From NCBI RefSeq assembly GCF_013167455.1, contig NZ_CP038328.1: a stretch of 64,000 nt of DNA; one strand, given 5' to 3'. Position 1 is the stretch's first letter; each line of letters begins with the position of its first letter. The DNA comes from Escherichia coli O157:H7 (lineage in GTDB: Bacteria > Pseudomonadota > Gammaproteobacteria > Enterobacterales > Enterobacteriaceae). A program made the position numbers. Shown here in pieces: positions 25,601-28,600 of this stretch.

Positions 25601-28600
25601 GTATCGGTGATTCAGGCAAATCAGGGAAAAATTAATGTGATGCATAGCTATCATTCGCTGGGGCGGGTATTACGCGATGCTGGTTTTCGCTTTCCGCCGC
25701 TGATTGAGAGCATTCCTGAAGGTGGGCGAATGGATGTGAGCGCGGAGCGTTTACCTGAACTGGATGCCGATTTTGTTTTTGCAACCTGGCGCGGTGACAC
25801 CGGTGGTAAACCTCAGGATGAGCTGGCAGCAATGGAAAAAGTCATGCCGGGATGGTGTCAGTTTCTGACTGCCTGTCGTTCCGGGCGTTATGTGCTGATT
25901 TCTCGTGAAGAGGCAATTTCTAACTCCTTTGCATCTCTGGGGCTGATGGCTGCGCAGATACAATCACAAATTGCGGGGCGACCTTTACCGGAGGCCAAAT
26001 GATTCAGAAAGACAAAACGCGGGTTGATATTTATGGTGAGCGTTTTCGCACTCGCGCGAGTCAGTTAACGCCTGGGTTAAGAGCTGTCGCCAGCTATATT
26101 AATGAGCATCGTGAAGTGGTACTCGATCAAACGGCGATGGAAATTGCGGCCACGTTGAACACTTCCGATGCCACAGTTATCAGGGCTATACAGGCCCTGG
26201 GGTTTGCCGGGCTGCGTGATCTGAAACGCACTCTGGAACAGTGGCTTGGTCCAGCCCTTAGTTCCAGCGAAAAGATGTCTACGACGGTGAGTAACTTGAC
26301 GAGCGATGTTAACACCGCAATCGACTTTGTTCTTGAAGGGCATTTGTATACCTGTAATGTCCTGTCAGAGCCTGAAAACCGCCACGCGCTTGCGCAAGCG
26401 GTAGCGTTGTTGGTACAGGCACGGCAAGTCGCAATTTTTGGCATTGGCGCTTCGGGTATTCTGGCGGACTATACCGCACGACTATTCAACCGCATAGGTT
26501 TGCCTGCCACGGCACTAAACCGTACGGGTATTGGCCTTGCCGAGCAACTGATTGCGCTTCAACGTGGCGATGTTCTGATCATGATGGCGCAAAAATCTGC
26601 GCACCGGGAAGGGCTGACAACGCTGCGTGAAGCGAGACGGCTGGGGATCCCTGTTATTTTGCTGACAAACGCGCTGGATTCACGTTTTAGCAAAGACGCC
26701 AGTATCGTGATTCATGTTCCGCGCGGGGATGAAAAGGGGAAAACGCCACTACATGGTACGGTATTGTTGTGCCTGGAAATGATTGTCTGGTCGGTGGCTT
26801 CCGCGGTGCCGCAGCGTGCGGTTAAAACCATTAAGCGAATTAACGATTTCCATCGGGGGCTGAAAACGGGAAGAAAGAATGGCTAATCTGACCTGAGGCC
26901 GGTAGCAACACCGGCCTCTTTTCAGGAATGTTAAATCCCTGGCTGCAGAATACGAATATTCATCTCCAGCACGTCACCTTTTACGGCTTCGCTATACGCC
27001 TTCATGTGCGGGGTTTGCAGATGCGCTTCAAGATGCGCGATGCTTTCCCACTGCTCAATCATCACGATAGAATCCGGTGCCATAGACTGGAAACTCACGC
27101 CAGCAGCGCAATCCACCATTGGCGCATAGCCGTGGCAACCTTCTTCTTTCAGTACGGTTGGAACGATTTTAGCAAACTGATCCAATACCGCCTGACGGTG
27201 ATGTTGACCAGGACGAGTACGGATTTCTGCGATTACGGTAAGCATGGTTAACTCCTTCTAAAGCCTGAGCTCTAGTTAACCAAAAATTTCCACAAGATGC
27301 TTGCGATATTCTTCAGTATAGCGGGGAACATCAGGCATTTTTATCACGTCATTAGCGATAAATGTCGGCAGCGGTTCCATACCGAGGAATTGGTTTGCTT
27401 TATGGAACGGCAGATACACACCGTCAACGCCAACGCCGTGGAAGAACTGATCTTTTTCGGTGAAGGCTTCCATTGGCGCGTTCCAGGTCAGAGAAAGCAT
27501 ATATTTTTTGCCCTGTACCAGGCCGCCGGAACCGTATTTTTTCGACGGATCTTTGCGGGTACGACCATCGCTGGCATACAGAGTCCCGTGACCTTCGGTG
27601 AATACATCATCAATGTATTTTTTCACTGTCCACGGCGCGCCCATCCACCAGCCTGGCATCTGCCAGATCACCACATCAGCCCAGAGAAAGTTTTGTACTT
27701 CCGCTTTGACATCGTAGTCGCTGTCGGCGCGAACGATGCGAACATCATGCCCGAGGTCGCGCAGTGTGCCATCCGCGACTTCGGTCAGGGTGTCGTTCAG
27801 TTGACCATTGGAGTGGGCGAATTTTTTCGCGCCGTTGATAATCAGGATGTTGCTCATTTTTTAACCTCAAGGTGAGACGTTTGCCGACTATAGTACGTCA
27901 CAGAGCGGTACGGTGAAATTAGCAAAATGTGCAAAGTCTTTTGCGAATTTAGCAAAAGTCTTACCCTTACCAGCTTACCTTCGCCTCAAATCCACCTTGT
28001 TCCGCATTCCCAAACTCAACATTCATGCCATGCAGCTTGGCGATTCGCTGGACAATCGATAGCCCAAGTCCACTGCCGGTAGCGGTTTGTCCGGGTGGGC
28101 GATAGAAGCGTTCGCCAATTCGCGCCAGTGCCTCTGGTGTCACACCGGGGCCGTTATCCCTTACGATGAAATTATCGGCATTCAGCGTGACGTCCACCAC
28201 GCTGCCCTGTGGACTGTAACGCACGGCGTTATCCAGCAAATTTCGCACCAACAAACTTAGCAATAGCGGTTGTCCGGTGCGTTTGATGCCCTGGACATTG
28301 AGTGTCAGTCGCACGTCAATTTTCGCCTGCTGCGCCGTGTGGTAAATATCCATCACCGACGATTGCAGGAGATCTTCAAGCGGGATCTCCGCGACGTCCT
28401 GAAGGTTATCCAGTGAGTCCAGCCGCGATAGCGTGAGCAGTTGATCAACCAGACGAGTAGCGCGATCGATCCCGGAATGTAATTGGAGCAGTGCTTTTTT
28501 CCGCGCCTGCGGATCATCGTCAGAGAGCTGCGCAACTTCGGTTTGCACTTTCAGCGCCGTTAACGGGCTACGAAGTTCGTGAGCTGCGTCGGAGGTAAAG

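Follow-up and report, generated by a model that had tools for sequence, protein, structure and literature searches.

Does Escherichia coli O157:H7 lack the small gene ygiZ that lies between qseC and mdaB in K-12, and, if so, is the gap a loss or the older arrangement of the locus? The question was addressed in a 64-kb stretch of the genome of E. coli O157:H7, referred to here as the window. A 1,125-bp query over the qseC-mdaB region was 100% identical to complete O157:H7 chromosomes, and the mdaB DNA of the window is 99.4% identical to that of K-12. The locus comprises the following features, with coordinates given for the whole window.

27276-27857, minus strand: mdaB (NADPH:quinone oxidoreductase, 193 aa), an open reading frame annotated as mdaB in an identical O157:H7 record.
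27858-27966, no strand: the qseC-mdaB intergenic spacer of 109 bp, the unoccupied (ancestral) form of a site that elsewhere holds ygiZ or hcp-X-ygiZ.
27918-27958, minus strand: the conserved mdaB upstream block ATTAGCAAAATGTGCAAAGTCTTTTGC with the inverted repeat CTTTTGC-N7-GCAAAAG, on the mdaB side of the insertion point.
27962-27966, no strand: the 5 bp TACCC at the position of the polymorphism, located by exact flank extension and by the boundaries of megablast blocks.
27967-29316, minus strand: qseC (sensor kinase, 449 aa), identified as an open reading frame and from annotation, with its stop codon directly at the insertion point.

In the window qseB comes next after qseC, and RefSeq likewise annotates qseC and mdaB as adjacent genes in an identical O157:H7 genome.

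The sequence-only reading had judged that some 108 bp separate the mdaB start from the qseC stop and that ygiZ is missing from this interval. The interval measures 109 bp, and no YgiZ-like sequence was found in it or anywhere else in the window. That K-12 has the gene at this position was also borne out: in MG1655, ygiZ (b3027) lies between qseC and mdaB within a spacer of 696 bp and encodes a DUF2645 inner-membrane protein of 110 aa. A tBLASTn search with K-12 YgiZ of the six frames of the 64-kb window gave a best E value of 3.2, with YgiZ-like sequence absent in every frame, and no open reading frame in the window matched DUF2645. In a blastn comparison of the 696-bp K-12 spacer with the window, the only match was to 27858-27961, the 104 bp beside mdaB, which are 100% identical; ygiZ is not there, and the K-12 order qseC-ygiZ-mdaB does not occur in the window. 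Where K-12 has a further 592 bp, the window has only the 5 bp TACCC, a net difference of 587 bp. The GC content of the 592-bp K-12 segment is 34%, compared with 52% for the window.

The absence of ygiZ from O157:H7 is an ordinary strain polymorphism, already reflected in RefSeq annotation. The comparison of the EDL933 and MG1655 genomes by Perna et al. in 2001 reportedly distinguished K-12-specific "K-islands" from O157-specific "O-islands". Like those islands, the difference at qseC-mdaB is a short, low-GC, strain-specific segment that breaks a collinear backbone of 98-99% identity, and three strain-specific segment differences of that kind were found within 12 kb of the window. Unlike such islands in general, its polarity is resolved by outgroups, as an insertion in the K-12 lineage, and the K-12 segment can be traced to a decayed three-gene cassette.

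The outgroup evidence comes from the Enterobacteriaceae. The neighborhood of mdaB was fetched with MdaB from one genome per species, giving 80 loci, and qseC, mdaB, and the cassette genes were located in each by tblastn. The qseC-mdaB gap is 102-112 bp in 74 of the 80 species representatives (105-115 bp if the stop codon is included), and 77 of the 80 loci contain no cassette gene. Species with the short gap include Escherichia albertii, Escherichia sp. MOD1-EC7003, the GTDB representative of E. coli, Salmonella, and Citrobacter as well as Klebsiella, Enterobacter, Kluyvera, Leclercia, and Raoultella. Their spacers are collinear with that of the window and have in common a near-invariant block upstream of mdaB. 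The window shows the two features that define the ancestral enterobacterial junction, namely a spacer of 109 bp and the block GCAAAAGACTTTGCACATTTTGCT, which is found at 27918-27944. Four other E. coli lineages, which diverge by 0.6-2.5% from the window in their flanks, have the same empty junction. The 109-bp spacer is the ancestral, unoccupied state of the site, and ygiZ is an insertion. Since the arrangement in the window is ancestral and common to almost all Enterobacteriaceae, ygiZ is an addition in K-12 and not a loss from O157:H7.

The junctions themselves bear this out at the level of single bases. The TACCC at 27962-27966 is homologous to the matching bases at the empty sites of E. 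albertii and other Escherichia and is therefore not a deletion scar. In occupied alleles the inserted segment, or islet, starts immediately behind TGG, the final sense codon of qseC, whose stop codon it provides. These alleles retain at the junction on the mdaB side the 12-mer GTCAGAGTAAGA, which is identical to the end of qseC at the empty site of Escherichia sp. MOD1. From the retention of this 12-mer it follows that the islet entered directly after the last qseC sense codon, bringing a new stop codon with it.

Within the spacer, the ATTAGCAAAATGTGCAAAGTCTTTTGC block and its inverted repeat are intact in all alleles, and the block is invariant or nearly so across the spacers compared. A marbox-like match with 2 mismatches at 27917-27935 on the minus strand does not by itself rise above chance. 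An Rfam scan of 27858-27966 matched no family, a scan of the 109-bp spacer for terminator and promoter consensus sequences gave no match above chance, and the predicted RNA folding of the spacer was no better than that of shuffled sequences (z = -0.42).

What occupies the site in other strains was determined by comparison with Nissle 1917, in which the qseC-mdaB interval carries ∼1.7 kb with three co-oriented genes: hcp (159 aa), a gene for a 236-aa hypothetical protein to which we give the working name X, and ygiZ. Strains of B2 type, among them Nissle 1917 and ST131, have this full cassette. Where Nissle has 1,261 bp encoding X and hcp, K-12 has 131 bp, with no significant similarity between the 131 bp and the 1,261 bp that they replace. 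The K-12 and Nissle alleles have both junctions in common, which indicates a single insertion origin, and the common junctions together with the 131-bp replacement show the K-12 allele to be a decayed form of the same insertion. Three alleles are thereby distinguished, and they were counted over 5,426 complete E. coli genomes as follows.

hcp-X present: 1,262 genomes.
K-12 segment at full length (at least 80% coverage): 3,328 genomes.
K-12 segment, any match: 4,601 genomes.
No match to the K-12 segment: ∼825 genomes, derived from 4,601 of 5,426.

The corresponding shares are ∼23% for the full cassette, ∼61% for ygiZ only, and ∼15% for alleles in which neither was detected, the state of the window.

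The high frequency of the islet within the species raises the alternative of a secondary loss, under which ygiZ, or the entire cassette, was carried by an ancestor of O157:H7 and later disappeared, through a clean deletion or through homologous replacement by the empty allele of another strain. In favor of it, ∼85% of complete E. coli genomes have the islet, as does E. whittamii, and the cassettes found at qseC-mdaB in Citrobacter werkmanii and Pseudocitrobacter have diverged as deeply as the flanking core genes. We nevertheless regard such a loss as unlikely. The window spacer is collinear with, and to the base as long as, the spacers of E. albertii, other Escherichia, and ∼74 other species, and no islet remnant was found in its 109 bp. 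Direct repeats beyond chance expectation that could drive precise excision were not found flanking the islet, and a spontaneous deletion that recreated the exact ancestral sequence is improbable. Replacement by recombination would have given the same ancestral-type allele and would leave the description of the window content unchanged. The equal divergence of cassette and flanks is as compatible with a long-established resident lost on many occasions as with repeated insertion, and no flanking repeats were found that would account for the preference for this site. The site may hold an old presence/absence polymorphism kept by recombination or, instead, be a permissive site entered repeatedly. 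An old polymorphism would allow O157:H7 to have reacquired its empty allele, and the window content would be the same either way.

That ygiZ was simply missed, that it lies elsewhere in the genome, or that the window is misassembled at the junction is hardly credible, and nothing was found in favor of it. The tblastn and blastn searches detected no trace of ygiZ in the 64 kb, independent complete O157:H7 genomes match the junction at 100% identity, and the ∼825 complete genomes that lack any match to the K-12 segment are close in number to the ∼793 estimated to have a contiguous empty site.

The islet has the properties of a compact mobile cassette. The hcp product of Nissle matches PF05638 (E = 1.6e-19) and TIGR03344 (E = 2e-58), and Nissle YgiZ matches PF10840 (DUF2645) with 43.2 bits against a gathering cut-off of 25. 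DUF2645 is also matched by the products of the partner genes in other cassettes and by K-12 YjeO. X has 34 close relatives, none of them annotated. A DUF2645 gene lies directly downstream of X on the same strand in 16 of 17 loci, down to 40% identity in X, with the X stop and the DUF2645 start 0-6 bp apart or overlapping by at most 14 bp; hcp is adjacent to X in 15 of the 17. At least eight contexts for the cassette were found across Enterobacterales chromosomes and plasmids. C. werkmanii, Pseudocitrobacter, and a metagenomic organism have it at qseC-mdaB. In Pectobacterium it separates pagP from an EamA-family gene, in P. araliae uvrD from corA, and in Erwinia a yfbT-like gene from a yfbR-like one. 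On three contigs it lies within a flagellar operon, flanked by fliJ and fliI; in Chania it stands beside transposase remnants, and in Serratia and Rahnella it is found on plasmids. Conserved cassette termini were not found between genera, and the homology runs approximately from the hcp start codon to the ygiZ stop codon. Site-specific integration or excision through direct repeats or duplicated qseC 3′ ends was considered and rejected, since local alignment gave no better results than shuffled sequences in any of E. coli, C. werkmanii, and Pseudocitrobacter. A further candidate, K-12 YjeN as an X-like effector remnant beside the DUF2645 paralogue YjeO, was discarded on finding no similarity.

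X itself gave no match in Pfam (E ≤ 0.1) or NCBIfam and did not reach the threshold of the Pfam SLT family (PF01464), and the best hit in a sequence search against solved structures was not below E = 0.37. An AlphaFold model of X (pLDDT 76, pTM 0.77) has a predicted lytic-transglycosylase/lysozyme fold. Its structural comparison scores were as follows.

Slt and MltE: 10.2.
Tse3 (type VI muramidase): 9.5.
MltC: 9.5.
g-type lysozyme: 8.7.
Tge2: 6.3.

The model places a Glu-Ser pair at the end of a helix within the lysozyme-like fold, as in SLT enzymes. In an hhalign comparison, residues 66-89 of X aligned with residues 48-71 of MltE over only 24 columns and with a probability of 26%; within this alignment the invariant Glu82 of X (motif W-I-E-S-G-G) falls on the catalytic Glu64 of MltE. 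Searched with a profile, 1.8 billion representative sequences yielded 374 relatives of X. Among the long relatives are an Rhs-repeat protein and several eCIS_core (PF13699) proteins in which the X-like domain forms the C terminus, and one distant relative, P0149, passes the Pfam SLT model over the X-like region with 22.6 bits against a cut-off of 21.3. Inspection of the alignment revealed no hydrophobic N-terminal signal sequence in X. Relative to the family-1 lytic transglycosylases (Slt70 and MltE; PF01464), X stands apart: it falls below the SLT threshold, has neither signal peptide nor lipobox, is encoded beside hcp, and is followed by a cognate gene.

YgiZ has three hydrophobic helices, with Lys and Arg residues clustered at the N terminus and in loop 2. 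This charge distribution puts the conserved loop NKYDWMLExGDxxCSIP on the periplasmic side, together with a conserved Cys at the C terminus. The dN/dS ratio of ygiZ is 0.26-0.42 even between orphan copies, and by this measure the gene is under purifying selection even where it stands alone. K-12 ygiZ has its own promoter, which is activated by BglJ-RcsB (PMC3950696). An AlphaFold run in which a Gly-Ser linker joined X to YgiZ, on a paired alignment of 14 rows, gave a pLDDT of 54 and a pTM of 0.34 and lent no structural support to an X-YgiZ contact.

Taken together, the synteny of the cassette, the predicted fold, the alignment of Glu82, the X-like C termini of Rhs and eCIS_core proteins, the lack of a signal sequence, the topology of YgiZ, and the selection acting on ygiZ point to X as a putative effector and YgiZ as its putative immunity protein. 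The islet shows what is expected of an Hcp-linked effector-immunity locus, namely an adjacent hcp gene, a toxic-enzyme fold lacking a Sec signal, and a small co-inherited downstream gene, all of which are absent from the window. The insert is an AT-rich hcp-X-ygiZ cassette that entered directly after the last codon of qseC; in K-12 and the majority of other E. coli, 131 bp of unrelated sequence have taken the place of hcp and X, and ygiZ is left with its own promoter. In the mechanism that we propose, Hcp, the tube and carrier protein of type VI secretion, would carry X as an effector, X would cleave the glycan strands of peptidoglycan in the periplasm of attacked cells, and YgiZ would neutralize X through its conserved periplasmic loop; the ygiZ of K-12 would then be an orphan immunity gene. 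We infer type VI delivery, periplasmic toxicity, and neutralization by YgiZ from sequence and from structural models. We consider it likely, as a joint explanation, that the spacer of the window is ancestral and empty and that the islet of other strains is an hcp-X-ygiZ cassette, decayed in K-12, with X and YgiZ as probable effector and immunity protein. With more modest confidence, we lean toward the specific proposal that YgiZ confers immunity to an undescribed, Hcp-carried effector of lytic-transglycosylase fold, that this effector is intact in about one-quarter of E. coli while most strains keep the immunity gene only, and that O157:H7 would be vulnerable to it.

We found no paper linking X, ygiZ/DUF2645, or the Hcp of the islet to type VI secretion. 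The "hcp2B" orphan operon of APEC was considered as a counterpart of the islet and rejected, being at a different locus, and the muramidases of Pantoea hcp islands are analogous to X but unrelated to it. The nearest functional parallels are the type VI peptidoglycan glycoside hydrolases with adjacent immunity genes, Tse3-Tsi3 (Tge1-Tgi1) of Pseudomonas aeruginosa and Tge2/Tge3. X has no sequence similarity to the Tse3/Tge families and carries instead the family-1 Glu-Ser motif. To our knowledge, the immunity proteins of type VI glycoside hydrolases, those of Tse3/Tge included, are soluble periplasmic proteins or lipoproteins and not polytopic membrane proteins, which counts against YgiZ, a three-helix inner-membrane protein, in this role. 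Orphan type VI immunity genes occur in arrays in Vibrio cholerae and in acquired interbacterial defense islands in Bacteroidales. As in those cases, K-12 ygiZ is kept under purifying selection without an effector; unlike those arrays, it stands alone, at a fixed place in the chromosome and under a promoter of its own, and its protective role is putative.

The fold of X also invites a reading in which the cassette is not a weapon. X has the predicted fold and the Glu-Ser motif of housekeeping and specialized lytic transglycosylases, and some secretion systems recruit dedicated enzymes of this kind (EtgA, VirB1); X could accordingly open the producer's own wall for assembly of a secretion machine, with YgiZ as its membrane partner. 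We think this quite improbable. Having no hydrophobic N-terminal signal, X cannot reach the periplasm of its own cell through Sec, and hcp, not a type VI core cluster, is its genetic neighbor. Moreover, hcp-X-DUF2645 travels as a unit on plasmids and at unrelated chromosomal sites, X-like domains are found where Rhs and eCIS_core proteins carry their C-terminal toxins, and ygiZ alone survives under purifying selection in most E. coli, as orphan immunity genes do. Were X a wall-opening enzyme of the producer after all, its absence from O157:H7 would have no bearing on interbacterial competition.

The two states of the site may also differ in transcription. With the site empty, a gap of only 109 bp separates qseBC from mdaB-ygiN, and the two units are co-directional. 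Islet-bearing strains have a strong hairpin and a convergent gene between qseBC and mdaB; the hairpin follows the qseC stop codon inside the islet (-21.9 kcal/mol, z = -2.5) and is without counterpart in the spacer of the window. It is conceivable that transcription of qseBC reads through into mdaB only in the empty allele, the sole basis for this idea being the absence of a terminator consensus match from the 109-bp spacer.

The gap itself is of little import, being the normal enterobacterial arrangement and a routine polymorphism. Its value is indirect, in that it leads to a testable function for the uncharacterized ygiZ of K-12 as an orphan type VI immunity gene. The side result, a compact mobile hcp-effector-immunity cassette with what would be a new effector family, is the only part that merits follow-up. 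O157:H7 has neither X nor its presumed antidote at qseC-mdaB or elsewhere within the window. If the effector-immunity reading is correct, O157:H7 would be sensitive to X-firing strains, barring protection by some gene outside the window. It would then be selectively vulnerable to cassette-bearing commensal (Nissle 1917) and extraintestinal strains, which could bear on colonization resistance.

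The qseC reading frame of Escherichia sp. MOD1-EC7003 ends TGG TCA GAG TAA (L007, 4880-4900) and is two codons longer than that of E. coli. The 12-mer GTCAGAGTAAGA of this qseC end recurs where the K-12 islet meets the mdaB side, and the corresponding junction of the Nissle 1917 islet carries it with one change. Because the 12-mer is common to the qseC end and the islet junction, the sequence comparison suggests that the islet entered an allele with a qseC end of the MOD1-EC7003 type.

Upstream of mdaB, at window 27918-27958, lies a block, ATTAGCAAAATGTGCAAAGTCTTTTGC, together with the inverted repeat CTTTTGC-N7-GCAAAAG, and both are kept across ∼80 Enterobacteriaceae species. 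The cassette always lies between qseC and this block. At window 27917-27935 (minus strand), a marbox-like match with two mismatches is, taken alone, not above chance.

The window differs from K-12 at further positions. Between parE and ygiN, where K-12 has 51 bp, the window contains a 7.3-kb iron-siderophore uptake island (19627-26930), which is also found in Nissle 1917 and which may resemble the Fit system. Its genes are as follows.

19694-21835, minus strand, TonB-dependent receptor
25999-26886, RpiR-family regulator
Other genes of the island: ABC ATPase, two FecCD permeases, and substrate-binding protein

At window 31054-31058, 5 bp stand in place of a 927-bp K-12 segment (K-12 3167820-3168746) comprising the mqsR-mqsA toxin-antitoxin module, and ygiV directly adjoins ygiS, as it does in Nissle 1917. 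In an identical O157:H7 genome, yqhG is annotated as a frameshifted pseudogene (L002 25025-25125, about window 40300 onward).

A second gene of the DUF2645 family, yjeO, is found in K-12 at a locus outside the window (yjeN-yjeO, L104 5394-6019). YjeO is 25% identical to YgiZ and matches PF10840 with an E value of 4e-41, and its gene overlaps the upstream yjeN by 4 bp. Comparison of K-12 YjeN with X, the putative effector of the cassette, showed the two to be unrelated. The yjeN-yjeO pair could be another effector-immunity remnant.

In three contigs of metagenomic and genomic origin (L092, L096, and L097), the hcp-X-DUF2645 cassette lies within a cluster of flagellar genes and separates fliJ from fliI, an unusual place for an insertion. 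An Rhs-repeat protein and proteins with the eCIS_core domain (PF13699) have a C-terminal domain that is distantly related to X. The proteins with distant X-like domains are P0165, P0164, P0157, P0150, P0172, P0083, and P0120; one also has an OmpA domain, and one has Ntox3. The recurrence of X relatives as C-terminal domains of Rhs-repeat and eCIS_core proteins argues that the X fold is a reusable toxin module.
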